From: Stegostoma tigrinum
Taxonomy: Eukaryota
DNA: 64,000 nucleotides
Direction of reading: 5' to 3'
Assembly (NCBI RefSeq): GCF_030684315.1
Contig: NC_081369.1
Span: forward strand, 9,276,035 to 9,340,034
Shown: positions 1 through 52,960 of the stretch, piece by piece
How the letters are laid out: each line of letters opens with the position of its first letter
Numbering within the stretch: position 1 is the first letter of the stretch
Position numbers and translations under genes: made by a program
Notes under the pieces: model-generated
What the model was told of the DNA's origin: nothing
Database searches by the model: none
What the model saw: only the letters and a program-made list of their open reading frames with translations

Positions 1-97
1 AAATATTTAGAGAACTTGCCATGGTTAAATGTGGATGAATGAAATTCTACATCAACAGGAATCATGAAAGAGTGAGATAACTTTTCTTGCTCTTGAC

Positions 98-2232
98 TAT
101 TTTAAAGATTTAGGGAGCATAGGATGGGGAAGGAAACTGCAGGGGATGGGCACATTAGAAATGTGGAGCTTATTCAAGGAAAAGCTCCTGTGTGTCCTAG
201 ATAAGTATGTACCTGTCAGGCAGGGAAGAAGCTGTAGAGTGCGGGAGCCGTGGTTTACGAAGGAGGTGGAATCTCTCTTCAAGAGGAAGAAGAAGACTTA
301 TGTTAGGATGAGATGTGAAGGCTCAGTTAGGGCACTTGAGGGCTACGAGGTAGCCAGGAAAGACACAAAGAGAGAGCTCAGAAGAGCCAGGAGGAGACAT
401 GAAAAGTTGTTGGCGGATAGAATCAGGGTAAACCCTAAGGCTTTCTATAGGTATTTAAGGAGTAAAAGAATGACGAAAGTAAGATTAGGCCCAATCAAGG
501 ATAGTAGTGGTAAGTTGTGTGTGGAGTCAGATGAGATAGGGGAAGCGCTAAATGAATATTTTTCAACAGTATTCACTCTAGAAAATGAAAATGTTGTCGA
601 GGAGTATATTGAGATACAGGCTACTAGACTAGGTGGGATTGAGGTTCACAAGGAAGAGGTATTAGAAATCCTACAGAGAGTGAAGATAGATAAGTCCCCT
701 GGGCCGGATGGGATTTATCCTCGGATCCTCTGGGAAGCCAGGGAGGAGATTGCTGAGCCTTTGGCATTGATCTTTAACTCGTCATTGCCTACAGGAATAG
801 TGTCAGATGACTGGAGGATAGCAAATGTGGTTCCCCTGTTCAAGAAAGGGAGTAGAGACCACCCTGGTAATTATAGACCAGTGAGCCTTATCTCAGTTGT
901 TGTAAAGTGTTGGAAAAGGTTATAAGGGATAGGATTTATAATCATCTAGAAAAGAATAAATTGATTAGGTATAGTCAGCACGGTTTTGCGAAGGGAAGGT
1001 CGTGCCTCACAAACCTTATTGAGTTCTTTGAGAAGGTGACCAAACAGGCAGATGAGAGTAAACCGGTTGATGTGGTGTATATGGATTTGGGCAAGGCGTT
1101 CGATAAGGTTCCCCACAATAGGCTATTGTACAAAATGCGGAGGAATGGATTTGTGGGTGATATAGCAGTTTGGATCGGAAATTGGGTTGCTGAAAGAAGA
1201 CAGTGGGTGGTCGTTGATGGGAAATGTTCATCCTGGAGAGCAGTTACTAGTGGTGTACCGCAAGGGTCAGTGTTGGGTCCACTGCTGTTTGTCATTTTTA
1301 TAAATGACCTGGATGAGGGCGTAGAAGGATGGGTTAGTAAATTTGCAGATGACGCTAAGGTCGGTGGAGTTGTGGATAGTGACGAAGGATGCTATAGGTT
1401 GCAGAGAGACATGGATAAGCTGCAGAGCTGGGCTGAGAGGTGGCAAATGGAGTTTAATGCAGACAAATGTGAGGTGATGCACTTTGGTAGGAGTAACCGG
1501 AAGGCAAATTACAGGGCTAATGGTAAGATTCTTAGTAGTGTAGATGAGCAGAGAGATCTCGGATGTCCATGTACACATATCCTTGAAAGTTGCCACCCAG
1601 GTTGACAGGGCTGTTAAGAAGGCATACAGTGTTTTAGCTTTTATTAATAGAGGGATCGAGTTCCGGAACCAAGAGGTTATGGTGAAGCTGTGCAAAACTC
1701 TGGTGCGGCCGCACTTGGAGTATTGTACACAGTTCTGGTCACTGCATTATAAGAAGGATGTGGAAGCTTTGGAAAGGGTGCAGAGGAGATTTACTAAGAT
1801 GTTGCCTGGTATGGAGGGAAGGTCTTACGAGGAAAGGCTGAGGGACTTGAGGCTGTTTTCATTAGAGAGAAGAAGGTTGAGAGGTGACTTAGTTGAAACA
1901 TATAAAATAATCAGAGGGTTAGATAGGGTGGATAGGGAGAGCCTTTTTCCTGGGATGGTTACGGCGAACACAAGGGGGCATAGCTTTAAATTGAGGGGTG
2001 AAAGGTATAGGACAGATGTCAGAGGTAGTTTCTTTACTCAGAGATTAGTAAGGAAATGGAATGCTTTGCCTGCAACGGTAGTAGATTCGCTAACTTTAGG
2101 TACATTTAAGGCGTCATTGGATAAGCATATGGACGTATATGGAATAGTGTAGGTTAGATGGGCTTGAGATTGGTATGAAAGGTCGGCACAACATCGAGGG
2201 CCGAAGGGCCTGTACTGTGCTGTAATGTTCTA
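98..2232 (+). mobile_element. 5'-truncated CR1-clade LINE (shark HER1-like), ORF2 reverse transcriptase, relatively young
   Basis: Three overlapping ORFs (146-925, 907-1605, 1544-2152) join across two frameshifts into CR1 ORF2, with motifs KSPGPDGIYP, GNYRPVSL, QHGF, GVPQGSVLGP, KFADD, RPHLEYC and TRGH. 3' tail gggccgaagggcctgtactgtgctgtaatgttcta; ctatttt occurs at both ends (possible TSD). Confidence 0.95.
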
Positions 2233-11471: not shown

Positions 11472-11760
11472 GTACAGTCATGATGACTGTGGCAATGTCT
11501 GCCAGAATTCTACTGTGATGACTCTCAGCTACCCTCTGATTCACTGTGCTTCTTTGCTGGGTCATGCGGTTTGTCCTGTGGAGGTCTCCTGTGTGGTCAT
11601 GATGACTGTGCTGATGTGTCCCCGAATTCCACCATGATGACTCTCAGCTGCTCTCTGATTTGCTGCCCTTCTTCTTCATCTGGCAGAGGGTGTCCTGCAG
11701 ATGTCTACTAAGCAGTCATGATGACTGTGGGGGTGTCTCCCTGACTTCCAATGTGATGAC
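11472..11760 (+). repeat. 119-bp tandem repeat (~2.4 units) with C/D-box snoRNA-like architecture
   Basis: gtcATGATGActgtg recurs at 11477, 11596 and 11715. Each unit reads ATGATGA-16nt-C(A/C/T)GA-8nt-RTGATGA-14nt-CTGA; the third unit is cut by a CR1 fragment. Confidence 0.85.
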
Positions 11761-11769
11761 TGTTTGTCA

Positions 11770-20092: not shown

Positions 20093-21179
20093 CTGAAGCG
20101 CAGACTGAGGAATTGATTTGAAGAACATGTGCGTTTTGTCTGCAAAAATGATCTTGAACTTGCTGTTGCCGATCACTTCAATACGCGAGTGTTCGCTTGC
20201 GAGTATCTTTGAATCGGGCTTGCTGCAGAGCTCCAGCGAAGTTATTGCAAGCTGGATGAGTAACATCTCATTTTCTGTCTTGGGACACTGGAGCCCTCAG
20301 AACTCAATATAGACTTCAATCCTTTAAAAGGATAAGTACCTTCTCCCCTCTCCTTACCCCAAACTGCAAACAACATGAGCTGCTATCATAACCAACCCAT
20401 TGTAAGCTACCAATGGTCCAGGTCATGAGGAAGAAGCTGATTTTGGAAGAAATGCTGACAAGAGTGTACAAAGTTATTAGAAGTTTTAGTAAAATTGAAA
20501 CAAAAGAATCACAATGCTCTGTAAAATAGTCTAACGCACCTGCTTGCATTGTGCCAGGAATTTCCACATTGCTTGATTACAATGAAGATTTTTTCCTGAG
20601 CAGGATATTTTGTGATCTAGGTAGTTTAAAATCAATATTGTCAGGGGCATTGATGCACACATGTAGAGCAGATGAGCCGCGAAGCTGGCCTGCCTGGCTT
20701 ACAGTTAAGGAAGCTATTGTGCAACACTAGATCGCTACCCCATGTCCTCCATTGCATCTACACAAATTAAGTGCACGTGTTTTTATGGTTGCATAATTTA
20801 GCAAATATTTCGAATTAATGATTCTCCAAAGGGAGAGTCACCCTTTATTTGGACGGAGTGCTTCGCACCACTTCTCATAAGGAAAACATGCAGGTTGCGC
20901 CCTCGAGATGCAACGTACCGCTGCATTTTGTCTTTTTTTTCTTTTTCACTATTACTTCATCAGAATTTGTTGCATTTCTCCGCTCAATTCAACGTGTTTT
21001 CTGCTCAGTTTTCAGTCTGTCACATCAAACTCAAATGACTCCATTCGAAGGCGCATGTCTGTTATAAATCCCTATGACAGTGGCTGGTAATATAATCACC
21101 ATTTCTCGATGGATCCTGCCCTTCGGCATTTCAAACTATTGATAATGCTCTGCAGCTTCTCCTCTATTATCCATTACAA

Positions 21180-22923: not shown

Positions 22924-25900
22924 GTACTTTGGTTTTTGATTCACAGAACTGCTTTAATTCATTAAAGACTTTCGATGCAGCTCCTCCTTCCATTAAATAA
23001 TCTTAATTCATCTATCTTGTTAAGAACTTAACTCTCCTATCTTTATGCCGAATACGACAGTTAACTATGTTTTATTTTGTTTCTGACAGCTGCGGACCAC
23101 ACTTGTTTTAGGGTTACTCAAATACCTAAAAGAGCAGCTGCGAACAGACGGGAAGACATTACCTTCTACTGTACATTCTCCATTTGTCAGCAAAGTTCAA
23201 AGCCAAATGTAATTTGGTGGAAGCAGGTTGGGAATGAACGTGTTCAGATTGAAGCCAGTGGTAGACAACAATTTGGATTTGAAAATGAAGCAACAGCGTT
23301 CCTTAGCTTGCTGCGCGTTGATATCCAAGATTCTGGACATTATCACTGCACGGTGAATTACCAAGGAATCGGTCAAAGAAGCGGAACCCCGTCCCAGCTA
23401 TTTGTGCGTGGTAAGTGAGAGCGACACTGTCTGAAATAATTTGAAATAACAAGATATTTCCTGATCGCTGATTTCACCAATATTCGCGGTTAAATCGTGT
23501 CCAGTTATCATTTATACAGGAACCTACCCTTGATATTTCAGTTCCGTTGAAAAAAAGTAAAATTACACGATCAATATCACCGGTAGAAAACTGAAGCTTT
23601 TATAAATATTAACAATTTACGCTGTAATTCTAAAGACAGCCTATACACTATGTGCTTTTTGCCGATATACAAAACTTCCGATGTACATAGGCAACAAGAA
23701 ACCGCTTTGTCAGGCTATTCGTCCACAATTCTTAGTCCCTGGTATGTTATTGAAGTCGTGTGACTGCCCGACAATTATTTTTTCTGAGATTGAAGATTCT
23801 AGAAATTTATTCTCACATTAATTTCACGTCATAATTTGAAAATCAGCATGAACTTATTTCATGAGTGAAGGAATCGATGCAAAAGAAACACAGTTTGACA
23901 GATACAAGTAGGTTGAATCACTGACCTAGAATAAATAAAACAACGCAGAGAATCTGTAGCAATAACAAATTTGCTGGAAAAGCTCAGCAGGTCTGGCAGC
24001 ATCTGTGGAGGACAAAACAGAGTTAACGTTTCGGGTCCGGCGACCCTTCCTCAGAACTTAAAGTTCAACTGATTCAATGTGTTTTGTCAATTGAAATGCC
24101 TTGTTTTTGAAATCCGACTGATACAGTGATCTTGGGGTAATCGGCAATCTGCAACTTCACCGCCGTTATGCACTTGAGCTTAAAAAAAACACCAGGGCAG
24201 ACGAGCACAATTTGCTTTGTTCCTTTCTTGTGCGCAAGCTCAATTTAATTAATTTATTCAAATATGCGACATAAGCATTGCGAAGCATTTTGTAGTTTTG
24301 TTCTGCCGAGGAAGGCCAAGTATTGGATTTGATAATTCAAGTAAAAATGGATAAAAGCCGCTGCCTGGAGAGCTATTTGTTTCATTAACTGAATGCTTGT
24401 GCATAAAATTAAGTTGAGAAGAAACTGCACTTCTGAGCATTGTATTTCTAGGAAAGCATAGCGTCTGTAAATCAGCCTCAAATTTAACAATTTCTGATTT
24501 GTTCCAGTAACTTGGCTTTGTTCAATCTCTGCTTGCAGTTGCTCCAGTCCCACTGAAAATTACGCCCAAGTTTCACGAAGAAAATTCACTTGTGTCTTTG
24601 ACCCTTCTGTGTGAAACAGCTGCATTTTATCCGGAGGATTTCACCCTCGCCTGGTATAAAAACGGCACGAAAACTACAGTCGGTATAAATACGAGCAAGG
24701 TGCAGAACAGTGAGGGACTGTATGAAGTATCCAGTTCTTTGGTTGATCCTCATCCTCCCTCAAGTAATCTCAAGTATACCTGTGAAATATCTCACATCTC
24801 CCTCAAGACGCCTGCTGTTGTAACCCACAGTATTTCCACATTTGGCGGATTCCAAAAAGGCGAGTTAGTTGCTGTCAGTTTTGTTACGAAATGCATCGTA
24901 GAATAGTGCAACGTGTGGGCCTAATCCGCAGTGGTTTCATGGAGATGTATTTAAATGTATTATACTAAGTTGACATCTCTGTTGTAAGAGCATCAAAACT
25001 TATTTGGTATTCTATTTCTTTGACTTTTGAAATAGTAATTATGTTCAGAATTGAGCTGATCTATCCATTTGTTTCTTCCTATCATTTTGTCCACGTTCAC
25101 CTTCTTTGCCCAAGCTATGCCTACCTCTTTGTAGGTTACGTGGCACAATCCCTCTTCTGTACCTACACTGGTCCTAAACATCACTTTTTCCTCTGTTACA
25201 TTGATGACTGCATTGCCATCTCCTTGTGCTCCCATGAGGAGCTCGAGCAGTTCATCCACTTCACCCACAGACTCCCACAGCTACCTGGAATACACCTCCT
25301 CCCACCCACCTTCCTGCAAAAATGCCATTCCCTCCTCCCAATTCCTTTGTCTCTGCCACATCTGCTCCGAGGATGAGGCATTCCACTCCCGTACATCTCT
25401 GATGTCCTCGTTTTTCAAGGATCGCAACTTCCCTGCTCAATGGTTGAGAATGCCCTCGACGGTGTCTCCCGCATTTCCCACAACTCATCCCTCACACATC
25501 CTCCCTGCAAAAACAACCAAAACAGAATCCCCCTCATCCTCATGTACCACCTCACCAACCTCCTGATCCAATGCATCATCTTCCGACACTTCCGCCATCT
25601 GCAATCCGACCCCACCCTTAAAGACGTTTTTCCCACCCTCATCTGCTTTTTGGAGGGACCACTCTCTCCATGAATCCCTCGTCCGCTCCACACTCCCCTC
25701 CAGCGCTACCACACCGACACTTTTCCCTGCAACCACAGGAAGTGCTACACCTGCCCCTACACCTCCCCCTTCACCCTCATCTCAGGTCCCAAGAAGACTA
25801 TCCACATCAAGCAGATGTTCACCTGCACATCTGCTAATGTGGTATACTGATCCACTGTTCCTGTTGTTGCCTCATCTACATCGGGGAAACCACGCGGAGG

Positions 25901-28900
25901 CTTGGGGACCACTTTGCAGAACACCTATTCTCTGTTCGCACTAAACAACTGCACCTCCCAGTTGCGAATCTTTTCAACTTCCACTCCCGTTCCGCAGGTG
26001 ACATGTCCATCCTGGGCCTCCTGCAGTGCCGCAACGATGCTACCTGAAGGTTGCAGGAACAGCGTCCTATATTTCACTTGGGAACCCTGCAGCCCAATGG
26101 TATCAATGTGGACTTCACAGGCTTCAAAATCTCCCTCCCCCACTGCATCCCCAAACCAGTCACTTTCTGGATTACCCCAATCCAGAAATTGAAGTGGACA
26201 GTTGAGAAAATGCTTGTGATATCATTCCTCTAAATTTAAGAAAGCATAATTAGTAAGTAAGAAAGCTCGAGAACAACAGTATTTTGATTCATGGGGAATT
26301 GACTTATCTCATATTCCTACCTTTCCGAAACAGTCCTTTGTGTTCCATAAATTGACAATCTATTCCAGAGATTGATTCAGAATTTGCCATGTTGGATCAA
26401 GAATTCACTTCGATATTTAACAGAAATAATCTTTGGCAGTTCAGCTTTTTCATTGTCCTTGAATAGCGCTGTGCAGTTGAAAGTATCATCACATTTTAAG
26501 CAAAGAACTAAAGTGACAATATTTTTAATTTAATGATCACATGCAAATAATGTCTTCTTTATCCTGCAGACAGTATCAACAATTCACTGGTCATCTGGCC
26601 TTCAGTTCGTTATGTGATTTTCTCGGCGCTTGTTGTAATTCTGTTCGTGTTTGGGACTACAAAGTACTTGAGGATATCAGAAGTAAGGTCTACTATCAAA
26701 GCTTGCTTTTCGCACAGGGCCTGGGTTCATTTGCCATTTCTGGAAAACAAGCAGGATACTTATTAGGGATAATTCGAATTGGTTTAAGACTGAAAAATGC
26801 AATCATTTTGTTCTTTTTTCCCCCGCAAACGTGGATTGCTCCAAAGCCACTTAAAAACACAAGAAGGTTCTTGGAAACATGAGTGAACCATTCAGCCCCT
26901 TTGGGCCTGTTCTGCCATTCAAAGAGATCATGGTTGATGAATGGCTTAACTCTATATCCTTGTCCCTAAACACTTTGCTTAACAAAAATAAATCGATCCC
27001 AGATTTAAAATTAAAATTAACTTCTATTTGTTGAAAAGTCTTGCAAACATGTGCATAGAAGAGCTTCCTCACATCTTTCTTGAATGATCTTGTTGCAAGT
27101 TTTAGAGTATGACCACCAGTTCTAGAATCCACAACCAGCAGAAGTAGTATATGTTACTGACAAAGTGTGAAGAGGGTCTTCGGTCCGCCTCCTCCTCTTT
27201 CCCTATTTATTTCAGAACCCTCACCCCATCCCCCTCTCTGATGAAGGGTCTAGGCCCGAGACATCAGCTTTTGTGCTCCTGAGATGCTGCTTGGCCTGCT
27301 GTGCTCATCCAGCTTCACACTTTGTTATTTGGATTCTCCAGCATCTGCAGTTCCCATTATCACTGATACTATATTACTGACACTCTCTTTTGCTGTTAAT
27401 GTCGTAAAGCCTTCAATTAGATCATCTCTCAACCTTCTAAATTAGAGAGAAAATAGTCTTAGTTTGTATAATCCCTCCATGTAATTAAATCCCTAAAGTC
27501 CACAATTATCATTCTGGTAATTGTACATCATACTCCTTCCAAGGTCAATGCACCTTTCCTGTGGTATGCTGCTCAGAACCGTTCACAGCTCACCAAAATG
27601 TTTTCAAATGTAAACAATGCTCACGTGTGTTAATTTCCAAAGGCACATTTCAGTTTTCAACATGAGAAATGAAATTTATCACAATAAATATGAAGTAGGT
27701 AATTCGATGCTTCTGTCAAGTAATGATTGCTCCTTGAAAGAATGGAGGATTAATAGCAGATTCTGATGTTGCAACCGTCTGATCTCTGCGAGCAACATAA
27801 TCAAATGTATTCTGCCTCAACGGAACATTCACATCCTTTCTCTAATACTTTGATTCAGAAAAATGCGCTCATTTTCTGCATGGAAACTGAGTCAATATTT
27901 TCATCACTCAATGCAATTATATTTCATTGGTTTGCAGGTAAAGAAGAATGCACAAGGCAATCAGACTGCCATGTCAATGTGGTAAGTTCATATCATCATC
28001 ATGCTTGGAGTTTGAAATGTTTGGATCAATGGCAATAATGGAAGAAATATACATTAATAATGACAGAACATTTTATATCTATTTATTGAAAGACTATTCA
28101 TCTGGTATGTGTGTGTTTCAGAGCCAGGTTTGAAGCGCAATTTGTACAACTTGTATTACTGATGAAGGTTGGCAAGTGGATCTTCTTTAAAAAAAAACCG
28201 TAATCATATCTTTGAGAATGTTGCAAGATTGAGTCACGTTTTAGGGTTGAGAACAAATTTACTGTCTAAACCCATTGCATCTAACACTTAACATTATGTT
28301 TCAGCATGAATATGAGGAAGTTTGAATTGTTGCATTGAACACTGAGATTAACATTGTCTTCATGCAGATATATCTATAATATGGATTCTGCAAGGGATGT
28401 CGAGTCTTGGTTAAATATGCTTAGTCCTTGATGTAGAAAATCTTCGAGACAATGAAAAGGACACTTATTGAAGTGTTGTTCTTGTCCTCACAGGAAGCCA
28501 TGGCGGAGGTTTCCTGCAATAGACTTAGGCAAAAACAGGAGAACTCCTAGACATACGTTTGAAATAGAGAAAAACATGCCTATTGAGGTAGGGCGGAGTG
28601 GGAGAACACAAAATCAGGATAAAATTGTGATTCAAGATAATAAAATGTGAGGCTGGATGAACACAGCAGGCCAAGCAGCATCTCAGGAGCACAAAAGCTA
28701 ATAAAATGTGAGGCTGGATGAACACAGCAGGCCAAGCAGCATCTCAGGAGCACAAAAGCTACTTGGCCTGCTGTGTTCATCCAGCCTCACATTTTATTAT
28801 CTTGGATTCTCCAGCATCTGCAGTTCCCATTATCTCTAAAATTGTGATTCAGCCTGACAATGAAGGCATTTGCTTCTATGGACATTAGCCAAATGTCATT

Positions 28901-29148
28901 TTGAAGCCGATTTTTGTGTCCTTCTGATTAGTGCTTTGCAGAAAGTTTATAAAAAAGGCCAATTAATAACATTTCCAAATAATATCTTTACAGCTCTCCA
29001 TGTTGCTATCGGCAGTAAGATGACATACAGTCCTCTAAAGTTCTCTGTTTCTGCGAAGAAGGCACAGAGATTGCTTGAGCTGCAGACTGAAAAACAAAAC
29101 AAAGTAACAGAAGATATCCATGCACAAGCAAGAAATAACAAGGCTTAA
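22869..29148 (+). CDS. Non-rearranging Ig-superfamily membrane receptor gene: leader + V(J-like) + C1 + TM + cytoplasmic exons (antigen-receptor-like, SIRP/NKp30-like architecture)
   Basis: Exons 22869-22923, 23090-23410, 24539-24859 and 26570-26682 all join in phase 1 into one open frame. Candidate tail exons are 27938-27981, 28494-28587 and 28994/29016-29148. AATAAA at 29241 and 29257. Confidence 0.85.
23090..23410 (+). CDS. Exon 2: IgV domain with germline-encoded G strand
   Basis: Acceptor ttttattttgtttctgacag, donor G|gtaagt, 321 nt. Motifs RVTQ.P, ITFYC, VIWWKQ, LSLLRV, DSGHYHC and SGTPSQLFV. Confidence 0.95.
23960..24058 (-). repeat. Penelope-derived short repeat with minimal hammerhead ribozyme core
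   Basis: Minus strand gtt-CTGAGGA-a-GGGTC-gccg-GACCC-GAAA-CGTT-aac at 24057-24022. Confidence 0.75.
24539..24859 (+). CDS. Exon 3: C1-set Ig domain
   Basis: Acceptor tctctgcttgcag; LTLLCETAAFYPEDFTLAWYKNG ... GLYEVSSSL ... YTCEISHISL shows C1 hallmarks (C-x-x-x-x-FYP, W, Y-x-C-x-x-x-H). 321 nt; donor AAG|gcgagt. Confidence 0.95.
25108..26160 (+). mobile_element. Penelope-like retroelement (Neptune-type), truncated; RT + Cys-knuckle + GIY-YIG; intronic
   Basis: PSYAYLFVGYV..FFLCYIDDCI (RT), PTDSHSYLEYTSSHP..CKNAIP (thumb), FPCNHRKCYTCPY knuckle, and FTCTSANVVY..IYIGET (GIY-YIG). An internal deletion lies near 25263. Confidence 0.9.
26570..26682 (+). CDS. Exon 4: stalk + transmembrane helix with Arg
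   Basis: Acceptor tcttctttatcctgcag; phase-1 reading DSINNSLVIWPSVRYVIFSALVVILFVFGTTKYLRISE; donor GAA|gtaagg. Read-through would stop at 26764-26766. Confidence 0.85.
26860..27600 (-). mobile_element. Decayed CR1 3' fragment interrupted by a Penelope-terminal insertion (~27160-27368)
   Basis: Minus ORF DSRTGGHTLKL..FKKDVRK; the insertion is flanked by tat(g/a)ttactgaca repeats. Confidence 0.75.
27938..27981 (+). CDS. Candidate short cytoplasmic exon (44 nt)
   Basis: Acceptor atttcattggtttgcag and strong donor G|gtaagt. Open as VKKNAQGNQTAMSM (phase 0) or GKEECTRQSDCHVNV (phase 1). Confidence 0.6.
28494..28587 (+). CDS. Candidate cytoplasmic exon (94 nt), reading frame uncertain
   Basis: Acceptor gttgttcttgtcctcacag, donor GAG|gtaggg. 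Open after phase-2 entry (WKPWRRFP...PIE); three stops in the phase-0 frame. Confidence 0.45.
28620..28851. repeat. Penelope-terminal insertion: perfect 61-bp tandem duplication + inverted copy, 15-bp TSD
   Basis: taaaattgtgattca at 28620-28634 and 28837-28851; duplicated unit 28638-28759; inverted arm from 28762. Confidence 0.85.
28994..29148 (+). CDS. Candidate terminal cytoplasmic exon with ITIM-like MTYSPL
   Basis: Acceptors end at 28993 (atctttacag) and 29015 (ctatcggcag). Frame ..KMTYSPLKFSVSAKK..DIHAQARNNKA*, followed by two AATAAA. Confidence 0.6.
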
Positions 29149-29240
29149 ATATTTCAAGGCAAAAGATTATTCTTGGACTTGGACTGATCACAATCGTTGG
29201 CACTTAGAGCTTCAGGCCTGCACAGTCTCACCTCTGTGCG

Positions 29241-29262
29241 AATAAAGCATTACCGCAATAAA
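29241..29262 (+). terminator. Tandem polyadenylation signals
   Basis: AATAAA at 29241-29246 and 29257-29262, about 100 nt after the stop at 29148. Confidence 0.55.
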
Positions 29263-29398
29263 GCAGATAGACATAGCGAGTACCTATCCTTTTAATGGCC
29301 AATTAATCCCTATTATTGGTTTTTAAGAACACCAACAACCTGCTTTGAAAGTATGTTTGAAAGACACTTTGCTTGAAGCAGAGTAAATGAGAATTGCA

Positions 29399-29702
29399 GG
29401 AGAATCCAAGATAACAAAGCATGAAGCTGGATGAACACAGCAGGCCCAGCAGCATCTCAGGAGCACAAAAGCTGGCATTTTGGGCCTAGACCCTTCATCA
29501 GAGAGGGGGATGGGGAGAGAGTTAGGGTTAGAGTTAAACCCTAACCCTATCGCCTGTCCCCGTCCCCCTCTCTGAAGAAGGGTCTAGGCCTGAAACGTCA
29601 GCTTTTGTGCTCCTAAGATGCTGCTGGGCCTGCTGTGTTCATCCAGCTTCACACTTTGTTATCTTGGATTCTCCAGCATCTGCAGTTCTCATTATCTCTG
29701 AT
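29399..29702. repeat. Penelope-terminal inverted repeat (~117-bp arms) with telomere-repeat apex and hammerhead core
   Basis: Arms 29399-29515 and 29557-29674; centre gTTAGGGTTAGAGttaaaCCCTAACCCTA. Confidence 0.85.
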
Positions 29703-32700
29703 CACAATTTTAACCGCACTGTGAAGCCTCTTCCAGGGATGCCTAACCTGAAGAAGTTACCTTCCTCTCTCTGGACCAACCTTAGGGAATCTCTCTCCAA
29801 CTGCAACTCTCTTGTCCACCTATCTTCTCCTCTATCCATCTTCAGAAGTTGCTTGAAGCAATTGGCTGCCTCTCAGAGCTTCTTGCTTGCTCTTATTGCA
29901 TTTGTCTAATCAGAATCTAGTTGCTTGCTGTCTGCATCCATGCCTTGCCTTGATTTGTACTGTGTTTGCAGAGCCACACAGCTACCTTGCAAGTGAATAC
30001 TTCATAGTCAATGAGGTACGCAACCTGTAATACGCAATGTGTGACATGAGTGTCGCAGCTGCGACTTGTGTCAGCAGTTTATGCACCAAACACACATCAT
30101 GTGTAGCCAACAGGCAGCCATGTCTCAAAGTCAAAGGGAAAGAGACGGGTGTGACATCCTTGGAGGTACCTATCAATTACAGTGACCCAGGAGAGTAATG
30201 AACAGCTGTCTCCCATCCCAGTCCAACCATCTGCGGAAGGTCAGGCGTTTGGCCAGGGTGGTGTTGGTCAGGGTCTGCAATCCGGGGACTGGGTTATGGT
30301 CAGTCCAGTGCCTCCATAGCACTTAGGACAGTGGGAAGTGCAAAAGACAGAAGGGAAGGCAGTGATATGAGAGGAGGACTTAATCCCCAGTCAGGATCAC
30401 ACTGGCATTTAGGGGTGAGAGGTGGGGAGTGAGAGACGGGTCTATGACCACTCCTGGCAAGGTCACCTCATATGGCAATGGTGTGGTGATGATCGTAATT
30501 GGCACAAGCAGACTCGAGAAGATGGGCTGCTTGTGGACCTCTGCAGGTGTAAAGCCTATGGGGTTCATGAGATGGGCAAGCAGTGAGAGAATGCAGACGT
30601 TCAGAGGCTCACAAACGTTCAAATGGAATCTAGAAGCCATTGGCCTAGATTGATCATTGACAGCTTCCATCCTAGTGGAATTTTAATGTGTGCAATGTGA
30701 AGCCAAATGGCAGAAAATTATACTTGGATGAAGTTCGTAAGTTTATTGAACTGTGAAGGAAGGGGCTGCAGGACTCACCAGTTTGAGACTTTTTAATTGG
30801 AAACTATATTACTTGCAGACCAATGAATGTTACAAGGCAGAGATTTGCAAACTCCTTGATCCTGGGCAATAGGCATGCACTGATCATACGTGTGAACTGT
30901 ATGTCACTGTCTTGGATATGAATGATTAGCTTATTTATGCCAGCACCTTTGCACTCAGGTGCGAGGGTGTTAATATCGTAACATTTCACCTCGGGAGGCG
31001 ACGGTATCAGCAGAACCCTGTGCTTAATTCTCAACTCTTCATTTTGTCTCAATAGTTTCCCTTTGTCTTTCTGCCCCTCCGACAGCTTGTCTGTGCTGTC
31101 CTTGGTAACATAATTGGGTGGAGCGTACCTGCTTGGCAATGGATTCCATTGACAATGACGATTTGGGTCAGGCAATCCTGAGAGCATTTATATCTGATAT
31201 GAATACCATTTCCATTGTATTGTTTGTACCTTGAGTAACTCAGTAGCACTGTAACAATCATATAAATTAGAAAAATTGTTCATGGCATTTCAGTTACACA
31301 TCTAAAAGGCACATATCGTTGAAACGTCAACATTGATGTTAGTCATTTTTGAATCTTACGTCCCTGCTCATAGTTTTAATGAATAGTGAACTTCAATTTC
31401 GTGAAGCATTTGCATGTCCCAAAAGGCTTGAAACCATCTGATGGTATTTAACACATCCACTCACTTGCCACTTCGTGATGTGTTGCAACAATTTCGTCAT
31501 AGCAAATTTTTATTCGCAACAATTAGATCATTCTGTCTCTGATATTCTTCACTGAATTACCATATCTATGTAGGTTTGTAAGTTTCTTCTGTAGGTCTTT
31601 ATGTGACCGAGTACGCTGCCTCATTCATGATTGGCAGAGTCTATGTGAACTCTCGAATAACGATAACATAATTAGCAAAAACATCTGGAAAATAAATAAT
31701 TGTCAAAGCTCAGTGGCAATAAAAATACAGTTGGTTGAATGCTGTCATAAGATAATTGATGTTTCCTTACATATATTCATAACATTTTCCAACTTCTTAT
31801 TTGACTCTCTGAGATCCATTCAAGCTCATTCTCATACAACTAAGATCACTAATTTTGGCCTTTATCGTACTGAATATCTTCTCCAGCGTCAAGTTTCCTC
31901 TGTACCAGCTGAACCATCATCTGTGATTTAATTCACCTGTGCTCAACGATTCCAGTACACACATAGCTGAACTCCCATATTTTATCTTCTGTAAACTGCA
32001 GCTAAACCTTTGTTTTTAATGTTTTAACAAATATGGGAGGTATGCTGCTAGATATTTTGGCTCCCAGTCAAGTGTAATATTAATTTTACAATTCCTATCA
32101 TCGTTAAAAACTGCCATTTAATTGCCTCTCCTCATCTCTCTAATTGCTCTACCACTGGCAGCTATCCAAAAATAGTCTCAGCATCTAAGTTATGGAAACA
32201 TCCTTACATCTCTCCACTCTTATCATTGCGTTAATCCGTAAATGCTTTTTAAAAGGTACCCATTTCAACGAGTGTTTGGCAGTGTAACCTTACACACCCT
32301 GATTTGTTCAATCAATGCTTCGTTTTGTGTTCATTTGATCTGTTTTGGGAGGCTTAAACATAGGTTTGTCTTCAGATATGCTTTCTTTCCACAGCTCTGA
32401 AAGGTCAACCGTGTGAAACCTGAATGGCTCACAAAATAAACAACCTCTTCAAAGAGAGGCACGTGTGCTTACCGCTAAACTACTGCTGACCATGTATTCT
32501 CCTTATGGGTAACAGAAGCCCATTCTTAAGGTAATTTGGTCAACCAATTGAATTTGCGACAGCACAAGTTCGCTGTAAAGTGTGGACATTTAATTTACTG
32601 ACACCATTATTTTTCGATTATGAAAATTTATTCTTATTTTGTCAATATAACCTCTGGAGTTAAAGAGTCAACCATTATTAAAGTTATGAACTTTAGTGTA

Positions 32701-39350: not shown

Positions 39351-39369
39351 GTTGATCAACATCACCCAG

Positions 39370-41873
39370 TCATGATGCAACACCATCTGTACTCTTAGAA
39401 TCAATCGCAAGATTGTCATTTAACCAGCAGACAAAGGAGGAGCCCATTGTCATACAGAATATAATGGACTAATGAAAGGAGGTGCACTGGCAGCTGAACA
39501 ACCAGGAACAAGATAGATGACTACCTGCTGATTCAAACAAAGAATACACCGGTCAACTGAACAGACTAGTCAAGACTTTTGATTCAGTCATTCAGAGTGC
39601 CCTGCACACTCTCCTCCCATGTAATTCCCATGTAGGGGATTTATACTGCATTTAAAAAGATGCTCAAAGCCAACACACCTGGACGTCCCATCGTATCAGG
39701 CAAAGGCACCTTATGAGAGAAATTCTCTGGCTGTGTTGAGGGCATCTCAAAACCAACTGTACAGGCAACATCCAGCTTCAGTTGCAACCCTACAGATTTC
39801 TTACAGAAATGCAGTACCATAGATCAGAAAACCAGGAACCTTCCCCATCACAGTGGACGTTTTGTGACTCTACGCCAGCATCCCTCACAATGATGGCATT
39901 ACTGCAGAAGCCTCAGTCCTCAATACAACCAACTCTCCGTTTCCAAACGCTATCCTACAACTCATCCACTTCAAGCTTGATCAGAACAGCTTCACCTTTG
40001 ACAGCCAGTTCTTCAGTGAGACACACAGAACAGCCATGGGACCACATTTGCTCCCCAATGTGTGAACACTTTTATGCATATGTTCAAAAAAGACATCTTT
40101 GCTGCACAGAACTTCCAACCAACGCTATACACCAGATACATTGATGACATTTTTTGCCTTCAGCCTCATGGCAAGAAATCACTGGAAAAATTATATTGTG
40201 ATGTCAATATTTTTCATCCCAACATCAGACTTTTTATGGCCGATTCTTTAGAATCAATCTCATTCTTGGAAACACACATCTCCAACAGGGATGGACATCT
40301 TGGTACAGCACTCTACTGCTAGCCTATGGTTAATCTGACAATGCTGCGCTTCTCTAGTTTCCATCCTGAATGTATTAAAACAGCCATCCCCAATGGACAG
40401 GCCCTATACATACACAGAATCTGTTCAGATATGGAGTAACAAGATGGACACCTGAAAGTGTTGAAGAATGCCCTCATGTGAACAGGATACAATACTCAAC
40501 TCATCAATCACCTGTTTCAACATGCCACAGTGAAAAAATTTAATGACAGACACGAAATGCTTCCAATAGAGTGCCCATCATCTACATGTACTTGCTGGGA
40601 GCGGAGAATCTATGCAATGTTCTTTGCAGCCTTCAATGCATTGTCGATGACAATGAGCTCCTCGACTTATCTTCCCCACACCTCTACCTCTCGCTTTCAA
40701 ACAACCACCAAATATTAAATGCACCATTGTTAACAGAAAACTACCCAGCCTTCGGGACAACATTGACCACAACACTATACAACACTGTCAGGGTAGTCTA
40801 TGCAAGACACGTCTGACACTGGAAATGGACACAAACATTGTACACTAGGTGCACGGCAATTACTCAAGTGACTTGGCCAACATCGTATGTCTCACATGCT
40901 GCAGGCAAGGATGCCCTGAGGGATGGTAAACATTGGCAAAAGTGTGCTGACGCCATGACAATGGCTGGTTGAACATCACACAACAATTGACAGACAGGAA
41001 TGTTCCCTCCCAGTGGGGGAACACTTCCCCAGTCAAGGACATTCGGCCTAAGGTCTTCAGGTAAATATCCTCCAAGGCAGGCTTCAGGGCACACAACAAT
41101 GCAGTGTCACTGAGCAGAGGCTGATAGCCATGTTTCGCACCCATGAGGACAGCCTCAGCTGGGATCTTGGGTTCACATTGCAGTACAGGTGACTGCACCA
41201 CATTATACAAACACAAGCAGGCATACATAGACACGCACGCACATACACACACAAAGAAACAAACTGCCCCCCACACACACAGTCTCTTCCCCCTCACACA
41301 CACTCTCTCCCTCCTTCACTCTCACACACTCGGTCTCTTCCCCCTCACTCTGTCTCTCTTACACACACACACAAGCACAAGTCTATGGGGTGAATTTGTG
41401 TTTGCAGATACATTTTATTTCGTTCAAAAGCACACAATTTATACACAGTGAATATGGCGCTTTATAATTTCCTACTTTAGTCATAGCCAATTTGACTTCA
41501 AACTAAGACACAAACAGATTCTAAACGAGGCCTCATACTTAACATACAGTGTCTGACCTAAAATGTCACCTCTTTTTTGCACTGATAAAAGCATTAGTTC
41601 TATCAGGGCAGCGACTTGAAAGAAATTCAGGGATTTCCATATACATAGTAATCAATTAAAACCTTCTAACTGATTAAAGGTTTAACAGCATCTTTGCTTT
41701 GTTTAGTATATCCTCATCAATGGTGTGAAGCTTTGAACTTTTGATTATGAATCCTGTGTCTGATATTACCTCTCTCATGAACACCTGACGAAGGACTGAG
41801 GCTCCCAAACCTTCTGCTGTCAAATAAACCTGTTGGACTATAGCCTGGTGTCAGGTGATTTCTGACCTTGTCC
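39370..41873 (+). mobile_element. Second Penelope-like element, decayed, with (CA)n-rich 3' region and terminal repeat
   Basis: PADKGG, GRPIVSG, LYTRYIDDIF, FHPNIRL..SISFLET and a GIY-YIG region (NIVCLTCCRQGCPEGW). Terminal cctgacgaagga..ctcccaaacc..aataaacctgttggactat (decayed hammerhead). Confidence 0.88.
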
Positions 41874-52399: not shown

Positions 52400-52960
52400 T
52401 TTAATGCTACAATTCTTTTCAATATCCATTCATTCCTTTGGTCCCACTGAGATTATTGATCTCAATCTTGACTAAATTCAACAAATGGACATCCACGACC
52501 CCTAGGATTCGAAACTGTCTGGCCTTTGATCAGAGATCACAGCCATGGGGAATACTTTCCAATCTAACCATTCCCTCAAAATATTTTGCATGTTTCAATT
52601 AGATCAACTCTAAATCTTGCCAATTCTGGGCAGTAAAGGAGCAATTTGCACAAACTTTTCAAAGGACAGAGATAGTAGAAACTGCCAGTTCTGGAGAATC
52701 TGAGATAACACGGTGTGAAGCTGGATGAACACAGCAGGCCAAGCAGCTTCAGAGGAGTCGGAAATTTTGACATTTCGGGTCTCGACGCTCCTCTGATGCT
52801 GCTTGACCTGCTGTGTTCATCCAGCCTCACGCCATGTTAGCTCTTTTCAAAGGACAGTTGCCTTCTCTTGTGAGCCCTAGAGTCTTTCTTTGAGTAAGAT
52901 GGCCAAAGCTGTATGCAGTACCTCAGGTCCGAGCTGATCAGTGCCCTTTGTAGCTGTGGG
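52400..52960 (-). mobile_element. Decayed CR1 fragment with nested palindromic Penelope-terminal repeat (52670-52842)
   Basis: Inverted gctggatgaacacagcagg / cctgctgtgttcatccagc; cttttcaaaggacag is duplicated on both sides. Confidence 0.7.

Follow-up and report, generated by a model that had tools for sequence, protein, structure and literature searches.

A palindrome with telomere-like repeats at its centre

What placed a mirrored tract of telomere-like repeats at the middle of a retroelement palindrome in the shark Stegostoma tigrinum, and does it tie the element to telomerase? We analysed a window of 64,000 nucleotides (contig NC_081369.1, positions 9,276,035 to 9,340,034) in which the palindrome, with gaps, extends over 320 bp (29380-29700). 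The apex letters at 29522-29549 are TTAGGG TTAGAG TTAAA CCCTAA CCCTA, exactly as a sequence-only reading of the locus had reported, including the strand flip at the centre. That reading also saw inverted arms, which are present, and put them at about 117 bp; they measure 125 nt without gaps, at 91% likeness (29395-29519 and 29554-29678). The palindrome mirrors about the A at 29536, with pairing at 12 of the 13 positions closest to that axis, and its folding gives z = -28.9 against 100 shuffles.

Of the three telomeric runs of at least 9 nt in the window, the apex has those of 13 and 11 nt, which exceed the third in length. An order-3 Markov model predicts 0.003 runs of 13 nt per window and 1e-6 per 34-bp apex, figures that overstate the surprise because the hexamer with which each half starts comes from the element itself. 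From either side the G-rich strand of the head-to-head tract, about 38 bp overall, runs 5' to 3' toward the centre, as expected of addition to cDNA 3' ends. Given that the two halves of the apex mirror each other, they probably reflect one event and not two.

The arms derive from an endonuclease-positive Penelope-like element

By sequence comparison, the arms are the pLTR of an endonuclease-positive (EN+) Penelope-like element (PLE) with elasmobranch relatives. The shark protein P0005 comprises the C-terminal part of an RT followed by GIY-YIG and reads on into a C-terminus like the arms (16/20 and 17/21 residues); its 3'-end peptide also matches the window copy at 27178-27279. The sequence-only reading had taken the arms for a Penelope end with a typical inverted 5' copy, and both this match and the known PLE layout bear it out. 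In P0001, GIY-YIG scores 23.2 bits (Pfam cut-off 22.6) and RVT_1 stays below its cut-off (E 9e-5), while P0011 has RVT_1 above the Pfam cut-off. The diagnostic EN+ PLE pattern is found in P0001, P0005 and P0008, with the histidines assigned by eye. RT and GIY-YIG are thus tied to the terminal repeat via relatives, the insertion itself being without RT. A CX4CX2C linker is present in P0001 and in a broken window copy near 25735; the CX2-5CxxC linker between RT and EN defines the Neptune and Nematis clades (PMC8557442), to which the sequence here points. PLE RTs are described as the sister group of TERT (PMC8557442).

A broken RT/GIY-YIG frame at about 25080-26160 (+) has 19 relatives, 13 of them named from sharks or rays, and corresponds to an RT-thumb-GIY-YIG region of the same family with frameshifts and deletions. 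A full HMMER search returned four proteins, of which two (P0021 and P0023) are relevant and two lack a tblastn match to the window. Tail or arm translations gave no matches in word-indexed protein searches, and Pfam found no family in six PLE-derived window fragments. The family's DNA patterns had no matches among viral, metagenome and prokaryote genome contigs, and none of the 74 pattern matches from a protein-based metagenome scan was confirmed.

The insertion has the EN+ PLE layout, with a pLTR leading into an ORF start, an inverted 5'-truncated copy and a target duplication. Rotifer PLEs have been described with inverted pLTRs as well as target duplications and palindromes at the junction (PMC3846280). 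Among eight window copies of the family, four are flanked by direct repeats of 9-15 bp and four by none of at least 7. Their outer ends cluster at two sites, equivalent to about 29664 and 29700; the same spacing of about 36 nt appears in the mapping of public runs, where loose ends pile up behind 29661-29665 and depth falls after 29704. The two outer ends suggest an optional tail of 30-40 bp and two RT start sites, a reading that follows the description of the PLE tail in PMC11167929.

Anatomy of the insertion

A 12-bp exact target-site duplication (29369-29380 and 29849-29860, both +) encloses the whole insertion at 29380-29848, both arms included; the final base of its left copy is common with the start of the arm. 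At least 12 exact bases occurred as a direct repeat in 7 of 2000 random placements. The left arm (29380-29523, -) is an inverted, 5'-truncated pLTR copy that agrees with the right arm at 127 of 144 aligned bases. Its outer end is the family's main boundary (equivalent to 29700), and its inner end is the element's own AGGGTT hexamer, which here reads AGAGTT. The left half of the apex tract (29518-29535, +) consists of three hexamers in AGGGTT phase (variant, canonical, variant), the first being the element's own. A single unpaired A at 29536 forms the symmetry centre of the window allele, and the right half (29537-29555, -) holds a perfect 13-nt telomeric run (29537-29549) followed by a degenerate unit at the site of the element's own hexamer. 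The right arm (29556-29700, +) is a sense pLTR segment that stops at the family's main boundary.

The right arm carries a minimal hammerhead-like core (CTGA.GA ... GAAAC, 29572-29599, +), a regex motif match only, which is decayed in the left arm. Minimal hammerheads are described in fish PLEs (PMC4209133). Rfam gave no hammerhead match for the core at 29572, though the regex core fits, and no family at the gathering threshold. We rejected the 47 sub-threshold Rfam matches in 29300-29900, mostly microRNA hairpin models of the kind that any palindrome attracts; none of them is a hammerhead or a telomerase RNA.

Element sequence 3' of the pLTR continues at 29701-29816 (+) and is repetitive (depth 3-8e5 in run X2). 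It likely holds the ORF start, with an ATG at 29739, from which point to 29816 the translation follows the N-terminus of P0021 as far as NSLV. The piece that follows (29817-29843, +) comes from just upstream of the pLTR segment, out of the normal order seen in P0005, and therefore reflects a template switch, which may have used short imperfect homology at about 29806-29816. In the public-run mapping, a joint 29843->29553 and loose ends behind 29843 are found. Two minority states of the family are common to both arms, 29689 T versus C (11.5M/12.2M depth) and 29626 G versus T (21.8M/26.7M depth), so that the arms come from a single template molecule or underwent later arm-to-arm conversion. Two independent insertions around an older telomeric tract were rejected, given the one target duplication and these common minority states.

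The multi-unit tract is rare in the family

Public runs (four of the eight listed) were mapped on 29505-30104 at 80% likeness, with 131,322 contig pieces for X2 and 125,206 for X3. Summed arm depth exceeds 1e7. This value is not a measure of copy number, and the mapping leaves part of the joints and loose ends uncounted. Family depth peaks over the right arm and drops about 30-fold after 29704 (X2). Over 29525-29544, a measure blind to tracts at other fold-back positions, depth is 78.6 (X2) and 25.8 (X3), against 79.5 and 23.5 in unique-flank contigs. The resulting ratios of 0.99 and 1.10 are those of a single-copy sequence, with the qualification that mismatches at 29550-29562 may clip other copies from the mapping and that the assembly may have been built from X2 or X3. 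The relative X1 (1,260 pieces) has depth 0 over the tract. In bisulfite raw reads (X6) the tract reaches a depth of about 3.5, compared with 0-2 for the unique flank and about 5,000 for the arm.

Where the tract would lie, the loose-end consensus of X1 before 29553 (six contigs, agreement 0.93) shows ordinary element sequence, as do the window copy at 27166-27364 and the P0005 translation, which are without a multi-unit tract. The tract is absent from both other long family palindromes in the window, and no telomeric letters occur among the 12 of 145 rows of letters between joined ends that were listed; joints and loose ends are likewise known from the 15 of 262 and 24 of 1135 listed. From these sequences, the element consensus does not include the multi-unit tract, which is rare, with about one copy per genome, and probably the only one at this position. 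That the hexamers were added, as the sequence-only reading inferred, therefore fits the multi-unit tract; the first hexamer belongs to the element, which goes part of the way to what that reading had named as its refutation. The further proposal of a direct retroelement-telomerase link does not survive at the level of the family, because tract depth is single-copy and neither of the two other palindromes has a tract. A single ambiguous locus does not establish such a link, and there is no evidence of a systematic one.

The element consensus carries one AGGGTT exactly at the start of the tract, a feature that the sequence-only reading did not note, and in the window's longest pLTR copy, at 27 kb, this is the sole 6-nt in-register 3' end among 199 positions. 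About two hexamers (~12 nt) per arm are therefore new, and they are in register. The right side has two perfect units and a degenerate third; parsed differently, it can be joined to an in-register site of 5 nt that lies 15 nt farther on in the element. In X2 (depth 16.9 of 115.8) and in X3 (12.4 of 33.1), a single contig carries five extra bases behind 29536, which add a fourth, variant unit and leave no unpaired centre. With about half the single-copy depth in X3, this longer form is likely an allele, possibly a paralogue. The window form and the longer form may each be one slip away from a perfect three-plus-three palindrome.

Origin of the apex tract

We read the locus as an ordinary PLE insertion with a rare junction scar, likely a one-off repair accident and not a step of the element's cycle. 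Our preferred account, held tentatively, is that telomerase added repeats in register to an exposed cDNA 3' end during integration; action of telomerase at this single site is possible. The likelihoods that we attach to the mechanisms are judgements and not computed values. The endonuclease would have cut the two strands about 12 bp apart, cDNA synthesis would have halted at the AGGGTT hexamer, and telomerase would have extended that end once by telomeric repeats, about two hexamers per arm. Fold-back would then have mirrored the extended end, or that end would have been linked with a second one like it by pairing at TA, the sole self-complementary dinucleotide of the repeat, giving the centre GGGT-TA-ACCC, and later slippage may have spread the AGAGTT variant and so produced the two length forms. 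The tract begins at the best in-register end (6 nt) of 199 positions, on each side its G-rich strand is directed at the centre, with a perfect 13-nt run on the right, it is not consensus (27166-27364 copy, X1 loose ends, P0005), and the common minority states of the arms fit one template or later conversion. In-register seeds are a published hallmark of telomerase-made short interstitial telomeric sequences, present at 31 of 40 such loci in the horse (PMC7215372) and at 67-80% in rodents and primates (PMC2246262), and short head-to-head tracts ascribed to telomerase are known from 3 of 41 TERC-ITS loci (PMC8537989). Against telomerase at integration, the new letters (about 12 nt per arm) all reiterate the adjacent hexamer; two of the three left units are AGAGTT, which telomerase does not write; and nothing dates the tract of this single case to the moment of integration. 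The family also often duplicates or jumps, with a 61-bp tandem at the apex of the 28630-28837 palindrome, many joints that go back 86-98 nt among those listed and a template switch in this very insertion.

It is almost as probable that telomerase had no part, and that the lone AGGGTT was reiterated locally at the junction, by RT stutter, a templated end-joining insertion and then replication slippage, before being mirrored by fold-back or palindrome correction. The product would only look telomeric, because AGGGTT is a rotation of TTAGGG. The new letters are indeed exact copies of the neighbouring hexamer in its own phase, the left variant unit is repeated, the probable length allele has one extra variant unit, and junction duplications are common in the family; moreover, scanning selects just those reiterations that resemble a telomere. 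Local duplication requires, however, that the reiterated unit be the sole telomeric hexamer among 199 end positions, the lone hexamer has no flanking repeat on which slippage could start, and a 6-nt reiteration is absent among the 12 of 145 rows of intervening letters listed. Priming of telomerase on the seed and local duplication of the seed yield identical letters, which makes the two inseparable here. The flank of the telomerase RNA template favours the latter: by eye, the apex does not match the template flanks of TERC from the catshark Scyliorhinus torazame, another species (PMC8537989 supplement), which also tells against the copying from telomerase RNA that the sequence-only reading had offered. 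A TERC-like flank occurs at 1 of 66 horse loci, and most known tracts lack one (PMC7215372).

We regard it as unlikely that the palindrome came first and that a later double-strand break near its centre exposed two like ends in AGGGTT, which telomerase extended and end-joining closed, leaving an ordinary short head-to-head interstitial telomeric sequence that lies within a retroelement by chance. Such a break would account for two arms that end on one and the same base, where the apexes at 28.7 and 52.8 kb are asymmetric, and it has precedents in a horse locus with head-to-head tracts and an inverted duplication (PMC7215372) and in TERC-ITS inside transposable elements at 6 of 27 loci, where there is no enrichment (PMC8537989). 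It requires two rare events at one site, and a tract-free form is absent from the two indel rows listed, some differences being uncounted. The PLE RT itself, sister to TERT (PMC8557442) and seen to switch templates here, is very unlikely to have made the repeats by recopying AACCCU or by jumping to telomerase RNA or a C-rich telomeric transcript. An activity inherent in the RT would be expected to leave repeated cases, but tract depth is single-copy, and the element has no one-and-a-half-repeat template for realignment, nor the apex a TERC flank. Least probable is that the tract is a subfamily consensus, as in the telomere-targeting Athena and Coprina, or a product of chance or of assembly. 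One hexamer is consensus, and the X6 depth (about 3.5 against 0-2 on the flank) leaves room for a few further copies, but the single-copy depth in X2 and X3 and the zero in X1 largely refute this, and the subfamily consensus was rejected on the depth of the public runs. Since the runs of two samples cover the tract, it can be an assembly artefact only if both samples went into the assembly.

TERRA is G-rich, and no G-rich RNA can serve as template for adding G-rich letters to the cDNA strand. Copied, it would give cDNA rich in C, which is the wrong strand if the template is sense, so we dropped the copying from TERRA that had also been suggested. A relic of chromosome fusion was rejected as well, the tract being too short and lying within a target duplication.

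Comparison with known systems

The closest counterparts are EN+ PLEs with an inverted 5' pLTR (Neptune and Nematis; Pen2 and Pen3 of Adineta vaga), which have the same layout (PMC3846280, PMC8557442): a pLTR followed by the ORF start, an inverted 5'-truncated head-to-head copy, a target duplication, a tail seen as two 3' boundaries that lie about 36 nt from each other, and a palindrome at the inverted junction. They also share the RT with a C-terminal GIY-YIG and a CX4CX2C linker, here found in relatives. Target duplications are 9-15 bp here and 8-10 bp in A. vaga (PMC3846280). Unlike the known EN+ PLEs, the present insertion has a telomere-like reiteration at the junction. In the open-licence literature we found no account of an EN+ PLE whose inversion junction carries telomeric repeats; subscription papers and supplements may differ.

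The present tract behaves like a short head-to-head ITS. In short ITS and TERC-ITS (PMC2246262, PMC7215372, PMC8537989), the tract is absent from the ancestral sequence, as it is here from the consensus; they share the in-register start, head-to-head tracts with inverted duplication are known among them, and so are shark cases. The in-register start found here (6 nt, best of 199) is equally demanded by local duplication. About two new units per side are present here, whereas the query of PMC2246262 was (TTAGGG)4, and the longest perfect run, 13 nt, falls short of the about four or more TTAGGG units that mark short ITS. Unlike short ITS and TERC-ITS, this tract lies at the retroelement's own junction and has no TERC fragment.

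The EN-minus Athena and Coprina have telomeric repeats at a truncated 5' PLE end in the same polarity (PMC3846280) and a hammerhead-like motif nearby. They differ from the shark family, which has GIY-YIG (in relatives) and target duplications at internal sites; in contrast to their reverse-complement telomeric stretches, its consensus holds one hexamer and the tract was seen once. Fusion ITS of the human 2q13 type share the head-to-head orientation; the present tract, by contrast, is about 38 bp long, lies inside a retroelement with a target duplication and has no long array or subtelomeric flanks.

As a single locus the tract is a curiosity, inverted PLE ends and short head-to-head telomeric tracts at repaired breaks each being known. 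There is a small chance that telomeric repeats are rarely but recurrently added to EN+ PLE integration intermediates, leaving head-to-head tracts at many apexes that the single mapped stretch would miss, either because the PLE RT recopies AACCCU or jumps to telomerase RNA or because host telomerase caps cDNA ends in register. If the telomerase reading were true and the event recurrent, telomerase would act on free cDNA ends of PLEs within chromosomes, in parallel with EN-minus PLEs at chromosome ends. The very abundant shark family would then be a natural assay: at several hundred thousand copies per genome, repeat addition by, or on, a TERT-sister RT would be directly countable. The family is in any case a good record of the PLE mechanism, with its two end positions, 9-15-bp target duplications and frequent template switches.

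Other family copies and the surrounding region

A second head-to-head palindrome of the family lies at 28620-28851, in an intron of an Ig-domain gene, with a 15-bp target duplication; the asymmetric apex of the palindrome (28630-28837), with its tandem duplication, has no telomeric repeats. The third (52655-52857), of a related subfamily, also has a 15-bp target duplication and an asymmetric apex free of telomeric repeats. The window's longest pLTR copy (27154-27382) has a 9-bp direct repeat at its ends and, by eye, an apparent inverted arm of ~11 nt at 27160-27170, which is the same layout with a very short left arm. Among the joints listed, strand switches are frequent at 29573-29593 (29573 versus 29583, 29592 and 29593), around the quasi-palindromic stem of the hammerhead-like motif, and tandem re-starts of 86-98 nt are also common.

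The host gene (24511-29262, +) contains an exon with an Ig C1-set domain (Pfam E 2e-10) and, near 26570-26683, one that is likely transmembrane; it further has three short exons and a stop near 29147. AATAAA signals are present at 29241 and 29257, and the palindrome begins about 120 bp past the second, so that read-through RNA of the gene could, by prediction, form a long hairpin.

Decayed distant PLEs are found at 39358-41126 (+) and 20096-20377 (+), with about 30% and 37% identity to P0001 (tblastn). The end of another repeat at 23973-24055 (-), with a hammerhead-like core and 72% likeness to the arm, probably belongs to another family of PLEs. At 68-2152 (+), long reading frames that contain RT-like motifs may come from a CR1/L2-type LINE, and a tandem repeat of 119 bp is present in 2.4 copies at 11475-11761.
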